The notes beneath the pieces were generated by a model. The model was not told the DNA's origin and ran no database searches. It was given only the letters and a program-made list of their open reading frames with translations. A stretch of 62,196 bases of DNA, filler included, from Deltaproteobacteria bacterium (GTDB lineage: Bacteria; JAEEML01), in NCBI GenBank assembly GCA_016283195.1. It is 7 parts of 7 records of this genome, joined end to end, with 100 filler letters (N's around TTAATTAATTAA, not from the genome) between each part and the next. Parts side by side here need not be neighbours in the genome. Positions count along the whole stretch, not along the records: positions 50,286 to 57,889 come from JAEEML010000094.1; 6 more parts are not named here. The stretch is one strand, 5' to 3'. The position numbers and the translations under genes were made by a program. This document shows positions 24,976-62,196 of this stretch, one piece after another (positions within the stretch are counted from its first letter, which is position 1; the number at the start of each line of letters is the position of its first letter).

Positions 24976-25030
24976 GCCGCCCCGGTTAAGCGGACCCCTC
25001 CTCATCAAGTAGTGGAAATCATTAAAAATC

Positions 25031-25055
25031 GCCCCTCCCCGATGCAGGGAGGGGC
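25031..25055. terminator. GC-rich hairpin 3' of the DUF499 gene (possible terminator)
   Basis: gcccctccc-cgatgca-gggaggggc; a TTTTT run follows on the minus strand. Confidence 0.55.
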
Positions 25056-25064
25056 TCCAATTCA

Positions 25065-25093
25065 CTCGTCTCTACTTTCAAGGGGACAGTTCA
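25065..25093. mobile_element. Isolated IS3-family-like terminal inverted repeat
   Basis: tctactttcaaggggacagttca is nearly identical to tctactttgaagggtacagttca at 57562-57584; TGAACTG...AGA-type end. Confidence 0.55.
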
Positions 25094-38640: not shown

Positions 38641-38736
38641 ACGCCCTTCGGCAAGAAGTCAAGTTGAGAGGGAAAAATTGAAAACCGGCTTTTCTCTCCG
38701 CTTGGGAGATAGTGATTATTCAATAATATCGCCTGA

Positions 38737-39222
38737 TTGTCGGGGGTGAGGTCAGAGGTAGAGAGCCAAAAAGTTTTAACCGACGGCCTAGGCCTCCATT
38801 TTCTGGAGCTCACAAAATTAAAAGATTGTGTTAACATGGATAAAGAGCTGCGAGAGTGGCTTAATTTCTTCCATCATGGGCATGAGGAGGATTACATGGT
38901 TAGCGGAGCAAGTGCGGCAGTCGTTAAAGCCAATAACTGGTTCGCAAATTTTAAGGATGATGATTATATGTCCAGCCAGGCGTTTTTACGGGCCAAGAAC
39001 TTACGTGACCAAGCGGCTATTCGCAAGGCCGCCTTGGAAGATGGTCGTGAGGAAGGCCGAGCAGAAGGGCGAGCAGAAGGCCGAGCAGAAGGCCGAGCAG
39101 AAGGCCGAGCAGAAGGGCGAGCAGAAGAAAAAGTGCTTTTGGCCAAAAAATTCATGGCTCTCGGCCACAGTAAAGAAGAAGCCGCGAAATTTGCGGAAAT
39201 TGATGTGAAATTGCTTGATTAG
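38737..39222 (+). pseudogene. Rpn/YhgA-like (PD-(D/E)XK nuclease family transposase-like) C-terminal fragment with an intact internal small ORF at 38896..39222
   Basis: LHFLELTK...LREWLNFF, RDQ..., (RAEG)n and helical tail; N-terminal nuclease absent; in-frame GAGGAGG-5nt-ATG at 38896. Confidence 0.75.
39052..39128 (+). repeat. 12-bp in-frame repeat (EGRA x ~6)
   Basis: gaaggccgagca / gaagggcgagca units. Confidence 0.9.
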
Positions 39223-41190: not shown

Positions 41191-41497
41191 AATGCCCTCC
41201 TCTTTTTGCCCTCACCCCCACAATTATTGAGAATTATTACAAATTCCCCTCTAAATTTGTGAAAAAGGAGAAGGGGGCCGCGTGCGGCAGGGTGAGGGAG
41301 TAAGTGATGGTAATTTGGTAATATTGCTAAGTTTCTTGCGTGAAGCCATTGAGTCCAAAAACACGGCAAATATTTTAGCACACCTAGGGCATGGCGGCCA
41401 AAAGGGAAGATAGTAGAAATTGGTAAAACTTAATGGGCTTTTTGGGTACCTGCCTGCCGTGCCCCTAAATTATATAGTTCAAATTTCGCTTCTGGCT

Positions 41498-46040: not shown

Positions 46041-46256
46041 AGAAAAGAGAAGAAGAGAACACAAAACACAATCACCTCCTTCCCCGCCCTATCAGGCCGC
46101 TAATTCACTCAATCCGCCCACTCCAAATGCTCCCCACCACCTTTTAGGATCCTTCGCTATTTGTTAAAATGGCGAGGGAAATTTTCAATAATTACCACAG
46201 ATTGAGATGGTGAGGGAATGAAGCCAGAGGCCACCTACGCCGCGCCGCAAATTGTT

Positions 46257-47502: not shown

Positions 47503-47602
47503 NNNNNNNNNNNNNNNNNNNNNNNNNNNNNNNNNNNNNNNNNNNNTTAATTAATTAANNNNNNNNNNNNNNNNNNNNNNNNNNNNNNNNNNNNNNNNNN
47601 NN
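47503..47602. other. Artificial contig spacer
   Basis: Same linker. Confidence 0.98.
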
Positions 47603-47787
47603 TCCTTGTAATGCGGTAATTCCTTTTACCGCTGTTTAACATCGGTAATATCACAGGTAAATCCACGAGACTTACACAGTGAGGTCACTACATATTGTCT
47701 CCATTTTTACAAATAGAGAGGGCTCATCTATTTGAATTTACATTCTTTCTATAAATAACTACCGAGTCCGAGCCCGGGCCGGGGCGG

Positions 47788-48155
47788 CAGCCCCGGCTAA
47801 GCCTGAGGCGACTACTCAGATCCGGTCTCAAGTGTGGCCTCTGGCTTTTAAGACAAAGCAGAAGAGATATATTTCGTAACATGCCATAAATAAAGTTTTT
47901 TTTATTGAATAGCCGGGGTCCAGTGGTGCCCCCTGGTCGTGCAAAGGAGGAGGGGTTCGGGGAGGAACAATAGCGCTTCGAAAGTAGCGTGGGTCCTCCC
48001 CGAAAAAGAAAAAAAGCCATAAATTCTAATATGAGCCAGACACAAAAAATCAGCGCGAGGCACCCAAAGCCCTGATTTTAAAATTAATTTTTCTAATAAA
48101 AATAATGAGTTAATTTTTCGTTTGGGAGAAAACGGCGAAAACAGGAAAAAAACTA
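47788..48155 (-). repeat. Dispersed structured repeat, copy C (long form)
   Basis: Core as in A/B plus a ~150-bp flank shared with copy D (ttctaatatgagccagacac...ccctgattttaaaatt...aataatgagttaatttt). Confidence 0.9.
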
Positions 48156-50321: not shown

Positions 50322-50396
50322 GGCCCCATCGTCTAATGGTTAGGACGTCGGCCTCTCACGCCGATAATAGGGGTTCGAATCCCCTTGGGGTCACCA
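50322..50396 (+). tRNA. tRNA-Glu (anticodon CTC)
   Basis: GGCCCCATCGTCTAATGGTTAGGACGTCGGCCTCTCACGCCGATAATAGGGGTTCGAATCCCCTTGGGGTCACCA cloverleaf. Confidence 0.95.
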
Positions 50397-50446
50397 ACCA
50401 AAAGATAAATCCCGGTAATTCGCATTACAATGAACTAGAGGTGAAG

Positions 50447-51628
50447 GTGAGTAGCGAGTTTTTGCCGGCGATTGTTATTCCCACTTACAATAATGTCTCT
50501 ACCATAGCGCAAATAATAAACGGCGCTCTTCAGTATAATATCCCCGTAATTGTTGTTAACGATGGCTCGACAGATGGCACTGCTGAGGCCATAGAAGCTA
50601 TTGAAAATCCGCTGCTTGAAATTATAAAACACCCCAAAAATCTGGGCAAAGGCGAGGCCTTAAAGAGCGCTTTTAAGCACTGTCTGGAAAAAGGCTACAC
50701 CACCGCTATCACCATTGATGCCGACGGCCAGCACGATCCGGCACAAATAGCCCCTTTTTTGGCTGAGGCGGCTAAAGATCCGCAAAAACTTATTATTGGA
50801 AAACGCGACCTCAGCGGCCCGGGCAAACGGCCTAAAAAAAGCCGCCTTTTGCGCGCCCATTCCAATTTTTGGGTTTATATGGAAACCGGCCAGTGGCTTA
50901 GCGATACCCAAACCGGCTTTAGAGCCTACCCCGTAAAAGAAATATGCGCTATCAACCTGCCAACCGGTAAATACGATTTTGAAATTGAAGTGCTGGTTAA
51001 GTTTTTGTGGCGCGGCGGTAAAACGGCCACTGTGCCGGTGACGGCTACTTACGGCGCCGGTTCTTCTTCCCACTTTCGCCCCTTTTATGATTTTATGTTG
51101 GTAGCTCATTGCAATGCTGGCCTCTTCTTTCAGCGCTTTTTTCTGCCCCCGGCTATTTTGGGCCCAATGCACAGCAAAGGTGTTTTAAAAGGCGGCTATA
51201 TAAGGCGCTTTTTTGGAGCCATAAGGGAAATTGCCGCTGCCGATTTTTCCAGCCCGTGGCGTTTTGCTCTGGCCATCGGCTTGGGCGTTTTTTGCGGTAT
51301 TATTCCGGCCTGGGGCCTGCAAATGGTTATAGCTTACACGCTGGCTCGCCTTTTAAAACTCTCACGGCCGCTCACTCTTTTAGCCAGCAATATTTCTATT
51401 CCGCCGATGATTCCCTTTTTACTCTATGGCAGCCTACTCAGTGGGCGTTTTCTTTTGAATAAAGAGCTCACTTTCGGAATAAATATAAGTAATATAACTC
51501 TTGATTACGTTTGGAATTTTACTAAAGAATACCTAGTTGGCAGTTTGGCTTTTGCTTTACTCATGGGGCTTACGGCATTTATTATTGCTTTTGTTGCGGC
51601 TATGATTTTTCATCCGAGAAAGTTATGA
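50447..51628 (+). CDS. GT2 glycosyltransferase fused to DUF2062
   Basis: IVIPTYNN, VNDGSTDGT, NLGKGEAL, DADGQH, DTQTGFRAYP; C-terminal ALAIGLGVFCGIIPAWG..ASNISIPP; upstream ORF extension overlaps tRNA so GTG start chosen. Confidence 0.88.
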   Translation: MSSEFLPAIVIPTYNNVSTIAQIINGALQYNIPVIVVNDGSTDGTAEAIEAIENPLLEIIKHPKNLGKGEALKSAFKHCLEKGYTTAITIDADGQHDPAQIAPFLAEAAKDPQKLIIGKRDLSGPGKRPKKSRLLRAHSNFWVYMETGQWLSDTQTGFRAYPVKEICAINLPTGKYDFEIEVLVKFLWRGGKTATVPVTATYGAGSSSHFRPFYDFMLVAHCNAGLFFQRFFLPPAILGPMHSKGVLKGGYIRRFFGAIREIAAADFSSPWRFALAIGLGVFCGIIPAWGLQMVIAYTLARLLKLSRPLTLLASNISIPPMIPFLLYGSLLSGRFLLNKELTFGINISNITLDYVWNFTKEYLVGSLAFALLMGLTAFIIAFVAAMIFHPRKL

Positions 51629-51636
51629 GGTAATTT

Positions 51637-52368
51637 ATGGCAGATGTTAAACAAGTGGCTTTGGTAACCGGTGCCAGTCGCGGGATTGGCCGGGCTATAG
51701 CTATTAAACTGGCCCAAGTCGGTTTTCATGTTATTGTGAATTACAAAAGTAACCGCGAGGCGGCCGAAGAGGTTTTGCTGACCATCCAAAATGCCGGCGG
51801 CAGTGGGGAACTGGCTCAGTTTGATGTGGCAGAGGGACCGGCTACTTCAGCCGCGGTGGAAGAGCTTTTAACAAAGCATGAAAGTATTGATGTTTTGGTG
51901 AATAATGCCGGCATTTGTCGCGATATGCTCTTACTGTGGATGAAAGAAGAGGACTGGCTCTCGGTGTTGAATACCAATCTAATAAGCTTTTTTTATGTTA
52001 CTAAGCCGATTCTTAGAACCATGCTAAAAAAACGCTATGGCCGCATTATTAATATGTCTTCCGTTTCCGGGCAAATGGGCAGTCCCGGGCAGGTTAATTA
52101 CTCGGCGGCCAAAGCCGGGCTTATCGGCGCCACTATGGCTCTCGCCAAAGAAATGGGTAAAAAAGGTATTACCGTGAACGCTATTGCCCCCGGTTTTGTG
52201 GAAACCGATATGTTAAACGGTCTTAAGCTGGATGATGCTATTAAAAGGATTCCTCTCCAGCGCTGCGGTAAGCCGGAAGAAGTGGCGGAACTCGCGGCTT
52301 TTTTAGCTAGCGAAAAAGCCGCATATATTACCGGGCAGGTCATTGGCATAAATGGCGGAATGTTTTGA
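51637..52368 (+). CDS. fabG: 3-oxoacyl-ACP reductase
   Basis: TGASRGIG, NNAGI, NYSAAKAG, NAIAPGFV. Confidence 0.92.
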   Translation: MADVKQVALVTGASRGIGRAIAIKLAQVGFHVIVNYKSNREAAEEVLLTIQNAGGSGELAQFDVAEGPATSAAVEELLTKHESIDVLVNNAGICRDMLLLWMKEEDWLSVLNTNLISFFYVTKPILRTMLKKRYGRIINMSSVSGQMGSPGQVNYSAAKAGLIGATMALAKEMGKKGITVNAIAPGFVETDMLNGLKLDDAIKRIPLQRCGKPEEVAELAAFLASEKAAYITGQVIGINGGMF

Positions 52369-52382
52369 ACTTTGGAGATAAT

Positions 52383-53633
52383 ATGAACTTGCGGATTCCG
52401 GTTATTACCGGCATGGGTATTTATTCTTGCCTCGGCATGGGTCTTGATGAGGTTACTAGGTCGCTAAAAGAAGGGCGCTCAGGCATTGTCTTTTCCAAAG
52501 AGCGTAAAGAACTCGGTTTTCGTTCGGCGCTTACCGCCGCTTTGCCGCCGCTTGATCCGGCAGCCACCGGTTTAAAGCGCAAAGCCTTAAAAACTATGGA
52601 CGAACCGGCTTTATACGCCTATATGGCGGCTAAAGAGGCCATTGCCGATGCCGGGCTAAAGCCGGAAGACCTGGCCTCTTTGCGCTCAGGCGTGGTTTTT
52701 GGCAACGACAGCACGGTAAAAGCTTCGGCCCGGGCCGTGGAGACACTTAAAGAATATAAAGATACCAAATACATCGGCAGCGGCAATATTGTGCAGGCCA
52801 TGAATTCCACTGTTTCTATGAACTTGGCTGCTCTTTTGGGCACTAACGGAGCAGATTGGACCATAAGTGCCGCTTGTGCCAGCAGTTCTCATGCTTTGGG
52901 CCAGGCGCTGATGCTCATCCGCGCCGGTTACCAAGATATAGTGATTACCGGCGGTGCTCAGGAAGTAAATTGGGAGAGTATGGCCAGTTTTGATGCTCTC
53001 CAGGCCTTTTCGGCGCGGGAAAGTGAGCCGCAGGCTGCCTCCCGCCCCTTTGACAAAGAGCGCGACGGCCTGGTGCCCAGCGGCGGCGGGGCTGCTCTTA
53101 TTATAGAAGAGCTGGAGCATGCCAAAAAGCGCGGGGCGCCCATTTACGGAGTTTTGGTCGGTTATGGCTTTTCCGCGGCCATTGGCGAAAATATCAACCA
53201 AAGCAATAGTGAACAAATAAAAAATGCCATAACATTAGCCATGCAGGATGCTGGCCTGGTAACTAGCCAGATTGATTACATAAATGCTCATGCTACCTCT
53301 ACGCCGGTGGGCGATGCCATAGAGTGCCGGGCCATTGCCGAGCTCTTTGGCGAACGTGTGCCGGTTTCCTCCACCAAAGCCATGACCGGCCATGAGTGCT
53401 GGATGGCCGGAGCCAGTGAAGCTATTTATACCACTCTTATGGCTATGAACGACTTCATTGCCCCGAATATCAATTTTAAAGCTCTTGATGATAATTTGCC
53501 CAAAATCAATGTGGTAAATACTACCGAGCAAAAGCATATAAATATTGCTCTTTCCAACTCTTTTGGTTTTGGCGGCACCAACGGAGTATTAGTTTTTGAT
53601 TATTCAAAGAGTGAGCGGCGCGTGCATGGATAA
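52383..53633 (+). CDS. Beta-ketoacyl-ACP synthase (FabB/FabF-like)
   Basis: SAACASSSH, NAHATSTPVGD, GHECWMAG, NSFGFGGTN. Confidence 0.92.
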   Translation: MNLRIPVITGMGIYSCLGMGLDEVTRSLKEGRSGIVFSKERKELGFRSALTAALPPLDPAATGLKRKALKTMDEPALYAYMAAKEAIADAGLKPEDLASLRSGVVFGNDSTVKASARAVETLKEYKDTKYIGSGNIVQAMNSTVSMNLAALLGTNGADWTISAACASSSHALGQALMLIRAGYQDIVITGGAQEVNWESMASFDALQAFSARESEPQAASRPFDKERDGLVPSGGGAALIIEELEHAKKRGAPIYGVLVGYGFSAAIGENINQSNSEQIKNAITLAMQDAGLVTSQIDYINAHATSTPVGDAIECRAIAELFGERVPVSSTKAMTGHECWMAGASEAIYTTLMAMNDFIAPNINFKALDDNLPKINVVNTTEQKHINIALSNSFGFGGTNGVLVFDYSKSERRVHG

Positions 53634-54063
53634 TAATTTTTCTATCCCCGCGCTTATTCCGCAGCGGCCGCCTTTTTTATTTATTGAGCGCATAGAAGAG
53701 CTTATGCCGCAAAATGATTGGGCCGTAACCAGTGCACTTTGGCCGGAAAACTCTTTGGCCAGGGGGGAAGACGGCGAAATTAAAGAACCTTTTATCATTG
53801 AAGCGCTGGCGCAAACGGCGGCTCTTTTAGTGGGCGCTAAAAATGAAGCCGGCGGTGAGCCGCCTATCGGCTATTTGGCCGCTGCCGGCGATTTTCACTT
53901 TTTAGCGCCGCTGCCTAAAAATGAGCGCCTTTTTTTTAAAGTAAAAACCGTGCGCGAACTGGGCGCTTTTTTGGTTGTTGCTGCCACTTGTGAAGCGTTA
54001 GGTAGCGCTCTTGCCGGCGGTGAGCTCACCTTTTATCTGGACAAAAATAATGACAACTCTTAA
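53626..54063 (+). CDS. Hot-dog fold 3-hydroxyacyl-ACP dehydratase-like protein
   Basis: LIPQRPPFLFIE, IEALAQTAA, IGYL. Confidence 0.8.
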   Translation: MDNNFSIPALIPQRPPFLFIERIEELMPQNDWAVTSALWPENSLARGEDGEIKEPFIIEALAQTAALLVGAKNEAGGEPPIGYLAAAGDFHFLAPLPKNERLFFKVKTVRELGAFLVVAATCEALGSALAGGELTFYLDKNNDNS

Positions 54064-55171
54064 ATTTTTTCCGGTAAAAATAGCATCTTATGAGGCCATT
54101 ACGGCACTCGGTGATACAGCCGGCGGCTCGTTTTCGGCTTTTATGGCCGGCGAGAGCGGCCTTAAGTATGAGGAATCATCACCTTATCCGCTAGCTAAAA
54201 GTGCCTTTACCAGCGGAAAAGATAGAGCTTATGAAATGGCCTTAAAAGTGGCCAAAGAAGCTCTTAAACCCCTTCCGGAAAGTGAGCTTAATAAAACCGC
54301 GCTCCTGCTATCCACTGCCAAGGGTGAGGCTCTTTTGCTTGAAGAGGCTATAACTAACGGCGTAGCCGATAAAGATATTTTCCCCTCCGAGCTTACAGCC
54401 AAATTGCAAAAAGCGCTTAAGCTTAATCCTTTAACTTATACTGTTTCCAACGCCTGTGCTTCCGGTCTTATTACCCTGGCTCAGGGAATGCGCCTTATTC
54501 AGGACGGCGATTTTGACCATGTTTTGGTGGTCGGCGCCGATTTAGCCTCCGATTTTGTGGTTTCCGGCTTTGGGGCTCTGCATGCGCTTTCCGCTGATTT
54601 TACCCGCCCTTACGATAAAGAGCGCTGCGGTCTTAACTTAGGTGAGGGGGCGGCGGCTATTCTGCTCACGGCCAGTGATAATCTCCCGGCCCAGGGCTTT
54701 TTGAGCGGCTTTGGTATAAGCAACGATGCCAACCATATCACCGGCCCCAGCCGTACCGGCGACGGCCTCGCAATGGCTATGGAAAAAGCCCTAAAAATGG
54801 CTGAACTCACGCCGGAAAAAATAGACCTTTTAAATGGCCATGGCACCGGAACTCGTTACAATGACGGCATGGAACTTTTGGCCGTAAATACCGTATTTCC
54901 CCAAAAATGCCCGCCACTTATTTCCTTAAAAGGCTATATTGGCCACACTCTGGGCGCCGCCGGTGTTATTGAGACAGCGCTACTTTTAGAGGCGCTTAGA
55001 CTTAAACAATACCCCGCTTCCAAAGGCTTTTCCTCCGGTGAATTGCCGCCGCAGGTGAATATCCCTAAAGAGCCTGTTTATAATGCCAAATTGGATCGCA
55101 TTTTAGCTATGAAAGCCGGCTTTGGCGGCATCAACGCGGCGCTTGTTATAGAGAGCGCTAAGGTGCGCTAA
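54050..55171 (+). CDS. Second beta-ketoacyl synthase
   Basis: SNACASG, LNLGEGAA, NDANHITGPSR, HGTGTRYND, GHTLGAAG, GFGGIN. Confidence 0.88.
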   Translation: MTTLKFFPVKIASYEAITALGDTAGGSFSAFMAGESGLKYEESSPYPLAKSAFTSGKDRAYEMALKVAKEALKPLPESELNKTALLLSTAKGEALLLEEAITNGVADKDIFPSELTAKLQKALKLNPLTYTVSNACASGLITLAQGMRLIQDGDFDHVLVVGADLASDFVVSGFGALHALSADFTRPYDKERCGLNLGEGAAAILLTASDNLPAQGFLSGFGISNDANHITGPSRTGDGLAMAMEKALKMAELTPEKIDLLNGHGTGTRYNDGMELLAVNTVFPQKCPPLISLKGYIGHTLGAAGVIETALLLEALRLKQYPASKGFSSGELPPQVNIPKEPVYNAKLDRILAMKAGFGGINAALVIESAKVR

Positions 55172-56957: not shown

Positions 56958-57386
56958 ATGGAACTCAGCACATTTAGCCGCTTTGGTGATTTTATTAAGG
57001 CTCTCAGAGAATCGCAGGAACTTAGCCAGCGCGCTATGGCTAAAGTTTTGGAAGTTTCTCCCGGCTATGTCGGCCAGTGGGAGGCTGGAGTTTCCAAGCC
57101 CTCGGAGGCGGTTGTAAGGCGCATTTGCCTGAAATTCAGAGTGGCCGATGAAGCGGCTTTGCAGCGCCTGGCTTTTGCCGAGACGGCGCCGGAGCATATC
57201 AAAGCCGCGCTTTTGCCAACTTGCCAAAAAGAATCGGCTAGGCAACCGCTTTTAAGTGAGGCGGAGGCTCTTCTGATAGAACGTCTGCATTTGCTGCCGC
57301 CTGATTTGCGCTGCGCCGTAACGCGAAAGCTCAATTCCATCTTAAAAAGCCAGCTGGAGCAGCTTGCTGGCAGTAATCGCCTTTGA
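56958..57386 (+). CDS. XRE-family HTH transcriptional regulator
   Basis: RBS GGAGG; IKALRESQELSQRAMAKVLEVSPGYVGQWEAGVSKPS. Confidence 0.88.
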   Translation: MELSTFSRFGDFIKALRESQELSQRAMAKVLEVSPGYVGQWEAGVSKPSEAVVRRICLKFRVADEAALQRLAFAETAPEHIKAALLPTCQKESARQPLLSEAEALLIERLHLLPPDLRCAVTRKLNSILKSQLEQLAGSNRL

Positions 57387-57435
57387 AGGCTGGTTGTATT
57401 TTATCCCTCACTATCGCAAGTAGTGAAAATTATTG

Positions 57436-57616
57436 TGAACTGTGCCCCATGTTTAATAATCTTTTGTGAGCGTTTTCCAAGCAGCTCTCTCGAGTCTACT
57501 ATCAAGGAATGGCCGCACTTTTAATTGTCTACTTTTAAGGGATGCCCCCTCAGGGGTTGTGTCTACTTTGAAGGGTACAGTTCATTAGACTGTCCAAAAT
57601 TTAACTGGTATTAACA
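57436..57616. mobile_element. Cluster of IS3-family-like terminal sequences without transposase
   Basis: Four head-to-tail 32-35-bp units, each GTC(T/C)A...CA, plus an opposite-facing TGAACTGTGCCCC at 57436. Confidence 0.55.
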
Positions 57617-57747
57617 GGGCGGGGGCCAATAATTCCCAATGGTTGTGGAATGATGGAACTAAAGAGGAATTTCTTGGGAATAATTGCCCCACTTTAGCGG
57701 TTAAGAGGCTGCAAACGGCCGAGAGCCGGAAATTATGGAGGAAAATA

Positions 57748-57889
57748 ATGTCTATTCCACTGGAAGAGCTTGATAACAAAGTAGCAGAAAAGAGCCGCTT
57801 TATTCATACTGTCTTGGATGAGATGTCCAAAGTGGTGGTGGGCCAGCGCGAGCTTTTGGAACGGCTTATTTTAGGCCTTATTGCCGATG
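57748..57889 (+). CDS. MoxR-family AAA ATPase, N-terminal fragment
   Basis: RBS GGAGG; EMSKVVVGQRELLERLILGLIAD; runs into the gap. Confidence 0.8.
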
Positions 57890-57989: not shown

Positions 57990-60900
57990 AACGGCGGCGA
58001 TAACGGTAATACTGCCCTTAAAGGAGATATTAATCTCAAGCTGGCTTTAAGTTCCGGTGAGAAGTTACAATATCTTTGGGTGACTGCTGCCAAAGAGGGC
58101 AGCAAAGATGGCCAGGAAGTGGTTGCTACTTTGGCTTGCCCCAAAATTGCCGATTGCTCAGGGTTAAAAGAGACAGAAGACGGTTATGATGTATCTCTGC
58201 CGCTTGGTGAAGCTGCCGCTGATGAGGTCAGGGTAACAGTGACTGCGCTCACAGCCAGTGATACCGCCAATTCTCACGACGAAGTCACGAGAGGGCAGGG
58301 GCTCTATCTCTTTAGCGGTGAGGTGGAAAAATGCACTCCTGGCACCTCCTGCCGTGTAGAAGCAAAACGCGGCGAAGTGGCTACCGTAAATGCCAATTTT
58401 GTCTTTGCGCTAAAGGATAATGAAGCCGGCGGTAGCGGCAAAAAAGCCGATATTACTGGCAGGGATGCGCAAACAGATAGGCCTAAAGAGGAAGATAGCC
58501 CGGTTAATGGCAGCGCAGATAGAGACAACTACTTTATCGTAACTCTGGCTCCGGCTGTAGGTGCTCCGCTCTCCGAGGTCGCTTTTGCTATGGGGCAGCG
58601 CTCTGAAGGTGCTGGCCTCTACTGGAAAGGCTCGCTGCCTAAAGACCTTATCATGTTGGTAAAATTGCAGTCTGGTGGCCAGCAGGTGGCGGCTATGCGC
58701 CTTAATCAAGATGATGCCTGCACTGAACTTTTGATTTACCCGGATGAAAATAGCGGCGATCTTAAAGCCGAAGCGCAAAAACTCGGAAAAGAAAATTTTA
58801 AAGCAGCTTGCGCTGTTCCTGTGGGCGCCTTGGCCTCTTTTACCCGCTGCGGCGATGAGGCGTGCGTCAGTGATTCCTGCGGTGCTTTAGTAGAGCTGGC
58901 GGATATAGAATTACCCAACGATGCCTTTAGTGATGGCCTTAAAATTTCTCTGGACTCGTTTGCTGATGATGCCGAATTACAAAAACTTACTAACTTTCGC
59001 GGCCTGCCCAAGTGGAGCATTAGCGGTGCGCTTATGAATAAGGAGACCGCTGTACAGTGTCCGTATTATATTAGAATTAAACCGGAAGTTGGTGTGCCAT
59101 ACAATTTGTTGCCGAGCCTCACTGGAGTTCCCAGGCAGGTTTTAGCCCATGATGGCGCTATTTATGTCCTAAGTGACAATTTTATAGAAGAAGCCGGAGA
59201 TAGCGATAGTGATCCTACACATAATAGCGTTGAGCTGAATGTGCTAAAAGTTACCCCGGCAACCGGCGGTTATCAAAGTGAAAAAATATATTCGGTAAAT
59301 ATTGATGTCGGAGTGGCCGATAGCAATTTGCAACCAAGTATTAATGATATTTTTGATTACCAAGTTTTTACTAAGTTGGTGGTAATTGATGGTAAACTGG
59401 CGCTCTCTTATGGCCGCTGCGATGAAAGTGCCCAAAGTGGTAATGACCAAATTTATGGCTGTTCATATATATCGTTGGCCGGTGAAAGTTGTGGAAAGCA
59501 GTTAACAAAAGATATTCTTCATTCCCCCCAATATGGCAGTGGCGGTTATATCGCCGGTAATTTTGAGCTGGCCGGAATATCTATTGAGACCAATAACGGC
59601 GTGATAGAGAAAAAAGCTGTAGCTCAGATTATGGTGCTTGTCGGTTCAAGCTCCGAGGCCCTCGCTATTACCGTGACCGATGAAGATGATACAGTACTTT
59701 ATGAAGCTGATTTTCAGAATAATTATGAGAATGTAGTGTATGATGATATAACTATTAACAATATGGTTGTGGCCGAAGCCGATAAAAATATGATTAGGTA
59801 TGTAGGTCTTGTGAATGAGTATGGTATTTACAGTATAGATTATACCACTGACGATCTTTCAGAGTTAGAAATGCCGGTTCTCTACTATAACACACCGTCA
59901 ACTACTTATTTTGACAAAGTTATTTTTGGCCCAAGTGATAGAGTTTATGCCATAAAATTTGAAGAAAACATGATTTATAGCTCCAAGGAGAGCATCTGGA
60001 ATCCCGCACCTGTAGTGGAGGTAGATTATAATGGGGATCAGAGCACAGATTATTTGCTGCCAATGGAGCCTTTAGTAAAAGTGCCAGGTGTCTCGGCTAT
60101 GGATATTATGAATAATACTCTTTATGTGGCTACCAGCGATCCCAAAGGAAGTACGCTTTATGCTGTGGATATTAATAGCAAGCAAATCACCAAAGCTCTG
60201 AGCTTAGCGCAAAATGAGGCGGCACTTGGTTACCCGACAGCTCTTCTTTACCAAAATGGCGATCTTTTGGTGGCCGATTCCGCTTTGGGGCAAATAAGAG
60301 TGGTGGATATGGCCGCCGGTAGCGAAAAAGCGCCCATCGGCGTTTATGACGGCGCCTCTTTGGGGGCTTCCAAAGTGAGCAATGCTTCTAAACATAATTT
60401 GGGCAAAATCACGGAATTAAAGCCATCGGCAAACGGTTTTTATATGGCCACCAATTTGGGTAAAGCACATGTACATTATGAATTTGACGGCGACACAAGT
60501 TTGATGGAACTTCCTCTGGCTGGGATATATGAATATGTAAAAGCTAATGATGAATTAACTCTAAAAGCGGGTAAAATTAATGTCTCTAATGTTGAAGAAT
60601 ACTCTATGAGCGAGCAAGAAGCAGAGATAAACTTATTAGATAAAGGTCTTCTTTTGGATAGATTTGCCAGTAGCGATAACAGATATTCGCAAGTTTCCTG
60701 TTACCGCAGGGCCGGTAACAATGGCCCTGATTGTCAGGTTCAATCAGGGCTTTTTTCCGAGCAAGAATCGGATATGGCTTACCCAGTTAGCTTTGCCACT
60801 TTTAATAACGGGATTATTGTCGATGCCGCTTATTGGACAGGGGAATATTTGGAATTTAATGGATATTATGCTTCAACTAGCGGTATTTATTATGGAACAC

Positions 60901-61484
60901 TTGGCGAGGCCGGCTGGAACACAACTTTTAGAGCCAGTGTCACTATGGAAGACGGAGCAACAGAAGTAATAATAGCTTCCAGAAATGGGAATAGTGTGGG
61001 CTGCGCTATACCGGAATATAGCGAAAGCACAGGAGATACTATTGATTTTAATCATTATTCTCTGGAAAAAATTGTTTTAAACGATGTTGTAAATGAAAAA
61101 CCAGCGAAATATGGTGTTTCTTACAGGGAAGGTAGTGATTTTGTTTATATGGGCAATGATTCTTGGGCTTATATAACGGCTCTGGCAGCCGATAGCGCCG
61201 GTAGAGCGCTTTATGTGGCTGTCAGTTATTATGATTATAATCAGAGCTATAATAAGCAATTTGGCAAAATTATTAAGATTTCTTTTAAAGATGAAAATGG
61301 CAAAGTGCCTCTTTGCGATCCGGAATCCCAAAGAATGCCGCAAGCTGAAGAGGTGGCCAATATACCTTCCAATATCGAAAATCTGGCCTACATCCCCGCC
61401 GAAAATGGCCGCCCGGCCGATCAGCTCTGCTATAGCATAGCGAGCAGTACCAAGCGCGTTGAGTGCGTAGTTATTAGTGAGTAA
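57990..61484 (+). CDS. Large acidic, Cys-containing surface protein with beta-propeller-like blades; 5'-truncated
   Basis: Frame open from contig start; NHL-like PTALLYQNGDLLVADSALGQIRVV, ITALAADSAGRALYVA. Confidence 0.75.
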   Translation, partial: NGGDNGNTALKGDINLKLALSSGEKLQYLWVTAAKEGSKDGQEVVATLACPKIADCSGLKETEDGYDVSLPLGEAAADEVRVTVTALTASDTANSHDEVTRGQGLYLFSGEVEKCTPGTSCRVEAKRGEVATVNANFVFALKDNEAGGSGKKADITGRDAQTDRPKEEDSPVNGSADRDNYFIVTLAPAVGAPLSEVAFAMGQRSEGAGLYWKGSLPKDLIMLVKLQSGGQQVAAMRLNQDDACTELLIYPDENSGDLKAEAQKLGKENFKAACAVPVGALASFTRCGDEACVSDSCGALVELADIELPNDAFSDGLKISLDSFADDAELQKLTNFRGLPKWSISGALMNKETAVQCPYYIRIKPEVGVPYNLLPSLTGVPRQVLAHDGAIYVLSDNFIEEAGDSDSDPTHNSVELNVLKVTPATGGYQSEKIYSVNIDVGVADSNLQPSINDIFDYQVFTKLVVIDGKLALSYGRCDESAQSGNDQIYGCSYISLAGESCGKQLTKDILHSPQYGSGGYIAGNFELAGISIETNNGVIEKKAVAQIMVLVGSSSEALAITVTDEDDTVLYEADFQNNYENVVYDDITINNMVVAEADKNMIRYVGLVNEYGIYSIDYTTDDLSELEMPVLYYNTPSTTYFDKVIFGPSDRVYAIKFEENMIYSSKESIWNPAPVVEVDYNGDQSTDYLLPMEPLVKVPGVSAMDIMNNTLYVATSDPKGSTLYAVDINSKQITKALSLAQNEAALGYPTALLYQNGDLLVADSALGQIRVVDMAAGSEKAPIGVYDGASLGASKVSNASKHNLGKITELKPSANGFYMATNLGKAHVHYEFDGDTSLMELPLAGIYEYVKANDELTLKAGKINVSNVEEYSMSEQEAEINLLDKGLLLDRFASSDNRYSQVSCYRRAGNNGPDCQVQSGLFSEQESDMAYPVSFATFNNGIIVDAAYWTGEYLEFNGYYASTSGIYYGTLGEAGWNTTFRASVTMEDGATEVIIASRNGNSVGCAIPEYSESTGDTIDFNHYSLEKIVLNDVVNEKPAKYGVSYREGSDFVYMGNDSWAYITALAADSAGRALYVAVSYYDYNQSYNKQFGKIIKISFKDENGKVPLCDPESQRMPQAEEVANIPSNIENLAYIPAENGRPADQLCYSIASSTKRVECVVISE

Positions 61485-61589
61485 CCAATTTCAGAGCCTT
61501 TAAAGAGCGCCAGCTTTAAGCCCTTCCCCCGAAAGCGGTAACCACCTATTTTCTCTAGCCTTTTTTGCGATTTTGTTCATCGAAAATTT

Positions 61590-61955
61590 GCTTTAGATAG
61601 TCTATGAAGGCGGCTATCCATACCAGGTCTCAAGTGTGGCCTCTGACTTTTAAGACAAAACAAAAGAGCTATATTTTGTAACATGCCATAAATAAAGTTA
61701 TTTTTATTGAATGGCCGGGGTCCAGGGGGGGCCTGGTCGTGCAAAGGAGGATGGGGTCGGGGAGGAACAATAGCGCTTCGAAAGTAGCGTGGTTCCTCCC
61801 CGAAAAAGAAAAAAGACATGAATTTCTAATATGAGCCAGACACCAAAAATCCGCACGGACCCCAAAACCCTGATTTTAAAAATTGATTTTATCTAATACA
61901 AATAATGAGTTAATTTTTTTGATATGGGGTAAGTGGCGCAAACAGGGACTGTTTT
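61590..61955 (-). repeat. Dispersed structured repeat, copy D (long form)
   Basis: Colinear with copy C over about 360 bp. Confidence 0.9.
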
Positions 61956-62196
61956 TTAGGCTGCTTCTTTAGCGGCTTCTTCGTCAACCGCTTTAACGAC
62001 TACGCAGGTGATATTGTCGCTGCCGCCGCGCGAGTTGGCGAGGGCCACCATCATTTCAGGCACTTGCTTAAGTTCGCTGTAGGCGAGAGCCCGGCCCATT
62101 TCCAGATCATCGGCATAATTGGCGAGGCCGTCGGAACACATGAGGAATTTATCATCAGCTTCCAGAGGCAGAGCAAAAGTATCAACTGCCACATCT
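61956..62196 (-). CDS. PP2C-family Ser/Thr phosphatase, C-terminal part
   Basis: FLMCSDGL, ALANSRGGSDNITCVVV. Confidence 0.9.
   Translation of the reverse strand, partial: DVAVDTFALPLEADDKFLMCSDGLANYADDLEMGRALAYSELKQVPEMMVALANSRGGSDNITCVVVKAVDEEAAKEAA

Follow-up and report, generated by a model that had tools for sequence, protein, structure and literature searches.

The block of four repeated units studied here is carried by contig C137, between a gene for an XRE-family protein and the start of an ATPase gene, in a window (the whole stretch of DNA that was analysed) of 62,196 nucleotides, filler included. The units end at positions 57517, 57552, 57584 and 57616 of the window and have a common orientation and layout, with the starts of their inner motifs separated by 33, 34 and 31 nt. 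The position, orientation and layout given to them in the initial annotation are borne out, and the units are present again in an independent run, X1. The X1 contig spans 57199-57590 with 4 differences, which lie in the 207 nt upstream, and none in the 185 nt of the block (57406-57590), so the four-unit stretch is not an assembly artefact. In another run, X5, the stretch 57585-57618 is present with two differences in a different context. The features of the locus are collected in Table 1.

Table 1. Features of the locus between the XRE gene and the ATPase gene (positions in the window)
Feature	Position	Strand	Evidence or remark
XRE-family HTH gene	56958..57386	+	Pfam HTH_3/HTH_31; neighbour only, outside the element
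5' half of host hairpin repeat, truncated at the start of the IS tip	57405..57435	+	Profile hit 57405-57447, E 4e-7
Internally deleted IS3-family remnant, 149 bp, without transposase	57436..57584	-	Runs from the right-end tip (57436) to the left end (57584)
Right-end tip, inner core lost	57436..57451	+	14/16 nt to own right end on C6
Unit 1, third left-end core, +67 nt from the terminal core	57492..57509	-	5.0 bits
Unit 2, second left-end core, +34 nt	57525..57542	-	16.8 bits, top 7 genome positions
Unit 3, the real terminal inverted repeat (tip at 57584; length about 41 nt)	57544..57584	-	Profile rank 3
Unit 4 plus its 5 inner nt, an end from another small inverted-repeat family	57585..57616	-	27/32 to C34
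Second copy of host hairpin repeat, inverted, cut	57619..57648	-	Profile hit E 0.005
AAA+ ATPase gene start, truncated by scaffold gap	57748..57889	+	98% identity to C73 over 221 nt

The entire ATPase frame (329 aa) is found on contig C73, and the protein is probably of the MoxR type, judged from its motifs and its first annotation. C73 represents another allele of the locus. Over 515 nt around the XRE gene it shows 86% identity; an unrelated spacer of about 105 nt replaces about 280 nt in it, and the whole array block is absent. The XRE proteins of the two alleles are 94% identical, with no difference in residues 20-87. A metagenome scan for the locus returned only these two alleles (L187 and L188). 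Within the assembly, 83 contig pairs have at least 400 nt in common. Because many of these overlaps lie at contig ends and show 80-92% identity, they point to an assembly that is a mixture of strains or of recombined alleles.

A loose pattern tailored to the units gave 44 matches in the genome (3.2 Mb), 4 of them inside a 125-bp stretch; shuffled sequences gave 90-117, so that single matches of this pattern mean little. The promoter scan of the locus yielded 3 sites against 0.9 expected, a count that is not interpretable. A CRISPR-like array was ruled out, there being no repeats between the units. Elsewhere in the window, positions 50336-55171 hold a cluster with a glycosyltransferase-like frame, a reductase and two ketoacyl synthases, forming a fatty-acid or polyketide-type operon (Pfam check over 54011-55171 only), and a 1,134-aa frame with no Pfam match starts at a scaffold gap (58080-61484, plus strand).

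Comparison of units 1-3 with IS3-family ends

A whole-end profile was made from 28 of the 32 ends of 16 public IS3 elements, none of them from this genome, after four unanchored ends had been dropped. Over 6,431,788 genome positions unit 3 ranks 3, unit 2 ranks 429 (11.5 bits) and unit 1 ranks 5,997 (5.7 bits), with unit 4 lower still; by these ranks unit 3 is the only one that looks like a complete end. Unit 3 is identical at 24 of 27 nt to the left end of an intact annotated IS3 element of S. aureus, which confirms the earlier recognition of IS3-family ends without a transposase at this place. The same profile exposed ends of the same family on contigs C6, C38, C142, C68, C65 and C124. Unit 3 agrees with the C65 end at 33 of 41 positions, and the similarity extends about 41 nt inward from the tip.

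A second profile covered the core alone and was derived from 26 left and 19 right public IS ends, 45 in all. By this profile units 3 and 2 each have a core that scores among the best 7 of the 6.4 million positions in the genome, and the score of the unit 1 core is reached by 5 in 10,000 positions and lies below the 7-bit threshold applied to relatives. Compared with one another, the cores of units 1-3 agree at 15, 13 and 13 of 18 positions, unit 1 having 13/18 to each of the other two. The statement that the units differ too much to be a slipped repeat needs correction for units 1-3, whose cores are alike; their spacers have nothing in common.

The arrangement of the three cores is that of a left end in L195, the nearest public relative, from viral contigs, whose left end matches unit 3 at 21 of 26 nt. 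L195 has cores at 0, +33 and +66, with a weak one at +114; those of the locus stand at 0, +34 and +67, and the two ends align core to core. The interior of the array aligns best to the left-end interiors of L197, L195 and L201 (z 3.8, 3.2 and 2.7). Its alignment to the element's own right end has z 2.6, and with the majority of left ends there is no signal. Since the assembly contains no intact left end of the family, the match is to relatives and not to the parent. Comparison has shown, at the level of sequence, that units 1-3 together make up a single left end, that of an IS3-family element.

The block had been taken for a stack of ends from four distinct IS elements, which would mean that four IS3-type elements were nested and lost their bodies, leaving four tips head to tail. 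Nesting does hold for the junction of units 3 and 4, and IS150-type copies are frequently located in hairpins. We searched 185,579 genomes for tips with an inner motif 4-9 nt beyond them, a pattern that forced this layout; of the 28 loci obtained, about 20 were real IS ends by eye and about 7 (L103, L104, L106, L110, L119, L122 and L123) had a whole second IS3-type end. As a reading of units 1-3 the stack is nevertheless very unlikely. The CA that closes unit 2 falls within the 41-nt inverted repeat of unit 3 and so is not a tip. A chance TG at tip distance precedes 8 of the 22 inner repeats of relatives, so the CA with which units 1 and 2 close can be explained without a separate element. Both units are weak as whole ends, and in plasmids neither matched an annotated IS3 end. 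Each unit is thus not the tip of an element of its own; units 1-3 reproduce the triple-core left end of a single one. An early estimate of the stacking layout (17 matches in 400 genomes, 12 in the control) had too low a denominator. The proposal that IS150-type elements prefer targets immediately inside the ends of other IS3 elements was rejected, and nothing points to stacking as a general mechanism, since none of 93 distinct unbiased flanks, among the matches listed, shows the layout.

Among the loci of the junction scan, L103, L104, L106, L110 and L122 are true head-to-tail pairs of IS3-type ends. So are L119 and L123, from one Oscillospiraceae genome, in which the same two ends are present at two sites with different gaps.

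Other searches with the units were made in plasmids and viral contigs. Plasmid matches for units 1, 2 and 4 were at chance level, and among eight plasmid loci inspected (L006-L013) one, L013, lay at an annotated IS3 gene end. Exact unit patterns gave no match in viral contigs apart from 3 unrelated ones, and a three-unit tandem pattern gave 58 loci there, by eye simple repeats and none of them an array of IS ends.

It is also very unlikely that a single end, left over once the element had decayed, gave rise to all three copies on the spot by slippage or unequal recombination, the copies then diverging. The likeness of the cores (13-15/18) would agree with it, and L104 shows that an end can be doubled exactly in tandem; but the spacers have nothing in common, the cores alone being kept, and the spacing and number of the cores are those of intact relatives.

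The 149-bp remnant, unit 4 and the host hairpin repeat

The element to which units 3, 2 and 1 belong has a second tip, missed in the initial annotation, which is oriented oppositely to the units. It matches well over 16 nt only: over the whole repeat the agreement is 18/26, and the core scores -6.3 bits. The 3 nt next to one tip and those next to the other are not quite the same, one position being different, and they do not make an exact target duplication, which in the IS3 family measures 3-4 bp. The rank of unit 3, its match to the S. aureus element and the 14/16 match of the right tip place the ends in the IS3 family; the 149 bp between the tips hold no OrfA/OrfB DDE transposase. The locus is a remnant of an IS3 member and no autonomous member.

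MITEs and internally deleted IS remnants are short sequences with two tips and no transposase. The 149-bp piece resembles MITEs in these respects and differs from them in being single copy in the genome, where MITEs have several copies with two intact ends, and in having lost its right core. As a single copy whose right end has no core, it is probably immobile and a remnant rather than a MITE.

Unit 4 has a different origin. Together with 5 inner nt it agrees at 27/32 positions with C34, at 25/32 with C166 and at only 10/32 with unit 3. Its family is made up of paired-end elements of about 146-226 bp on C34, C166 and C32, without transposase; searches for a transposase linked to the family found none, and unit 4 scores low on the IS3-end profile. 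Small paired-end elements or end fragments of the family are seen on C34, C166, C32, C178 and C58.

The whole block is flanked on both sides by cut copies of a host hairpin repeat, which was identified with a profile made from 12 other copies and occurs at 102 places on 59 contigs. Pieces of this repeat also adjoin five of the six other ends of the IS family in this genome (C6, C38, C142 by eye, C65 and C124; not C68). The targeting of palindromic repeats is known in the IS3 family for IS1397 and ISKpn1, as given in the accessible part of PMC1525189, and the element of the locus is like them in its insertion into host palindromic repeats. In genome G009 the targeting of hairpins is visible but weak, with a mean arm of 9.0 against 7.1 by a crude measure.

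The host hairpin repeat is also present in the window at 25000-25057, 38694-38751, 41209-41278, 46148-46216, about 47600-48100 and 61480-61960. It is often one component of a composite element, also intergenic and about 300 bp long, of which there are 15-20 copies that are 72-95% identical. One isolated end of the IS family to which the remnant belongs (25068-25093, plus strand, C124) stands right behind a host hairpin repeat without a transposase.

The most coherent history of the block would be that an IS3-family element inserted at a spot already holding the host hairpin repeat and the unit 4 end. The insertion point would lie 5 nt inside the core of that end, unit 4 presumably being the older of the two, and the transposase genes and the inner right end would then have been deleted, the right tip alone remaining. 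The view of the locus as an insertion hot spot was right, and at least two elements contributed to it. The stretch 57436-57584 probably represents what is left of a single IS3-family insertion sequence, with units 3, 2 and 1 as its triple-core left end.

It had also been proposed that the block is a maintained array, and it would then be kept by selection as a decoy that titrates transposases or as a record of past invaders. Three cores have been retained, the excess of differences upstream of the block in the X1 contig has a chance of about 0.08 by hand calculation, and the IS911 transposase can pair directly repeated ends (PMC1636345, in its accessible part). But the C73 allele lacks the block as a whole, no gain or loss of single units was seen, a genome-wide search gave no second array, and stacking is absent from the unbiased flanks mentioned above. 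The block shows no folded RNA (z -0.01) and no match in Rfam, and its layout is fully explained by descent. Such a function is therefore highly improbable, and the remnant is most likely inert, strain-variable debris. The alternative that the repeats form an operator array of the upstream XRE protein is scarcely credible: they adjoin the XRE gene and precede the ATPase operon, but they lie downstream of XRE, the best genome matches to their motif are IS ends, and the C73 allele, with its identical HTH region, has no such repeats.

Left ends in the parent family and its relatives

On contigs C6 and C38 an IS3 transposase tail is followed by the right end of the family. The tail, of 104 aa, matches the NCBIfam IS3 model (E 1.7e-24), and as a query it identified 75 loci in viral contigs, with L195 and L196 as sisters at 69-72% identity. 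The OrfB of L195 is above the NCBIfam IS3 cut-off (266 bits), with no IS21 model listed.

We examined 47 of these loci. Once low-scoring ends and near-duplicates had been removed, the set comprised 26 left and 19 right ends. Extra cores have been identified in 13 of the 26 left ends (22 copies against 1.2 expected from shuffles) and in one of the 19 right ends (3 copies against 0.4). Most inner cores have offsets close to 32, 64 or 94; further offsets are 41, 76-77 and 108-114. The offsets keep to a 10.5-bp phase (R 0.60, nominal p 4e-4, the relatives not being independent). Many of the relatives start with TA, and the ends at the locus start with TG.

In a tree of 35 transposases the element of this genome, which fills 27% of the columns, is sister to L195 and L196 with support 96, and further values for this grouping are 92/89. 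The clade of 15 rows that includes it (support 91) has extra cores in 13 of its 14 public rows, with L196 judged by eye and L215 below the threshold. In a wider clade of 18 rows one of the three further rows has them, and outside it they occur in 1 of 16 scored rows, L072 having been left out of the scoring. Six loci were added later: of the two closest, L278 has a repeat at +35 and L277 none, and the four more distant ones have none. As 71 distinct ordinary IS150-type ends, among the matches listed, have no inner core near +32, the inner repeats are specific to the clade.

Relatives outside the repeat clade were inspected by eye (L228, L229, L230, L233, L279, L280 and L281, as well as L292, L293, L306, L326 and L376). 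Their left end has an inverted inner copy instead, and some of the loci are only a 50-60 nt hairpin of two ends. A second IS3-family element in this genome, on C82 (L005, 758-2122), has a stop within its transposase frame and is truncated by the contig end. It lies 59 nt from a host repeat and has a matching solitary end on C102; no relatives of its transposase were found in viral contigs.

The closest named kin of the family are elements of the IS150 subgroup, and ISBce14 falls in the wider group. ISSau2, a member of that subgroup, and the locus are alike in their TG...CA ends and in having the same core, and their repeats, of 42 bp and about 41 bp, are both long and imperfect (accessible part of PMC5771124). 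The IS1447 group, set beside the family by its description, is perhaps also among the closest kin. The IS1447/IS120 group is likewise a Firmicutes-rich branch of IS3 with long, poorly matched repeats, and TA termini and slippage at an A run are among its marks; IS1447 starts with TA, as do many of the relatives, whereas the ends at the locus start with TG, and the accessible description of the group mentions no inner direct repeats (PMC6211511).

Multi-core ends and their possible role

Described IS150-type members have one bipartite repeat per end, according to the accessible parts of PMC7780238 and PMC2909936, whereas the locus has three cores in a deleted element. In the ends of IS21, Mu and Tn7, and putatively here, several direct copies of a transposase-binding site are present per end (PMC10122671, in its accessible part), and by analogy the left end of the family probably works like these multi-repeat ends. 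In IS21 the repeats are found at both ends, 23 bp apart, and an ATPase partner is needed (same source), whereas in the family studied here they are nearly restricted to the left end, about 32 bp apart, and the transposase is of the IS3 type. The left ends do have the direct repeats of a core seen in IS21; there is no IS21-family transposase, and the family is no member of IS21.

A literature search, the scope of which took in neither ISfinder nor most subscription papers, found no description of multi-core left ends in the IS3 family. IS1221, an IS3-family element of mycoplasma, is reportedly endowed with inner direct repeats, and for this reason an earlier description of such ends is quite possible. 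The locus is an ordinary remnant, and the feature of note is the asymmetric, phased multi-repeat left end of the clade.

In IS3 elements the N-terminal HTH of the transposase binds the subterminal part of the repeat, as stated in the accessible text of PMC7780238 and PMC2909936. By comparison with its living relatives, the left end consists of the terminal inverted repeat (unit 3) and two inner direct copies of the putative transposase-binding core (units 2 and 1), about three helical turns apart. On the analogy of established IS3 biology, the extra cores most likely bind additional OrfA/OrfAB subunits. These would either repress the transposase promoter or build a larger complex at the left end; both are proposed because the extra cores, which in intact relatives fill the stretch from the tip to the start codon, reach that codon and occur almost only on the left. 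It is tentatively suggested that a branch of IS3 may have evolved asymmetric ends with 1-3 extra putative transposase-binding cores, in a phase of about 32 bp on one face of the helix, up to the start of the transposase.

The locus shows how one multi-core end may be misread as a stack of captured ends, and knowledge of these repeats helps the annotation of similar sequences in gut genomes. As the model of IS3 transposition assumes one bipartite repeat per end, a clade with phased repeats on the left only is a natural test system. Such a clade could reveal how extra sites set the asymmetry of the ends or limit the expression of the transposase.
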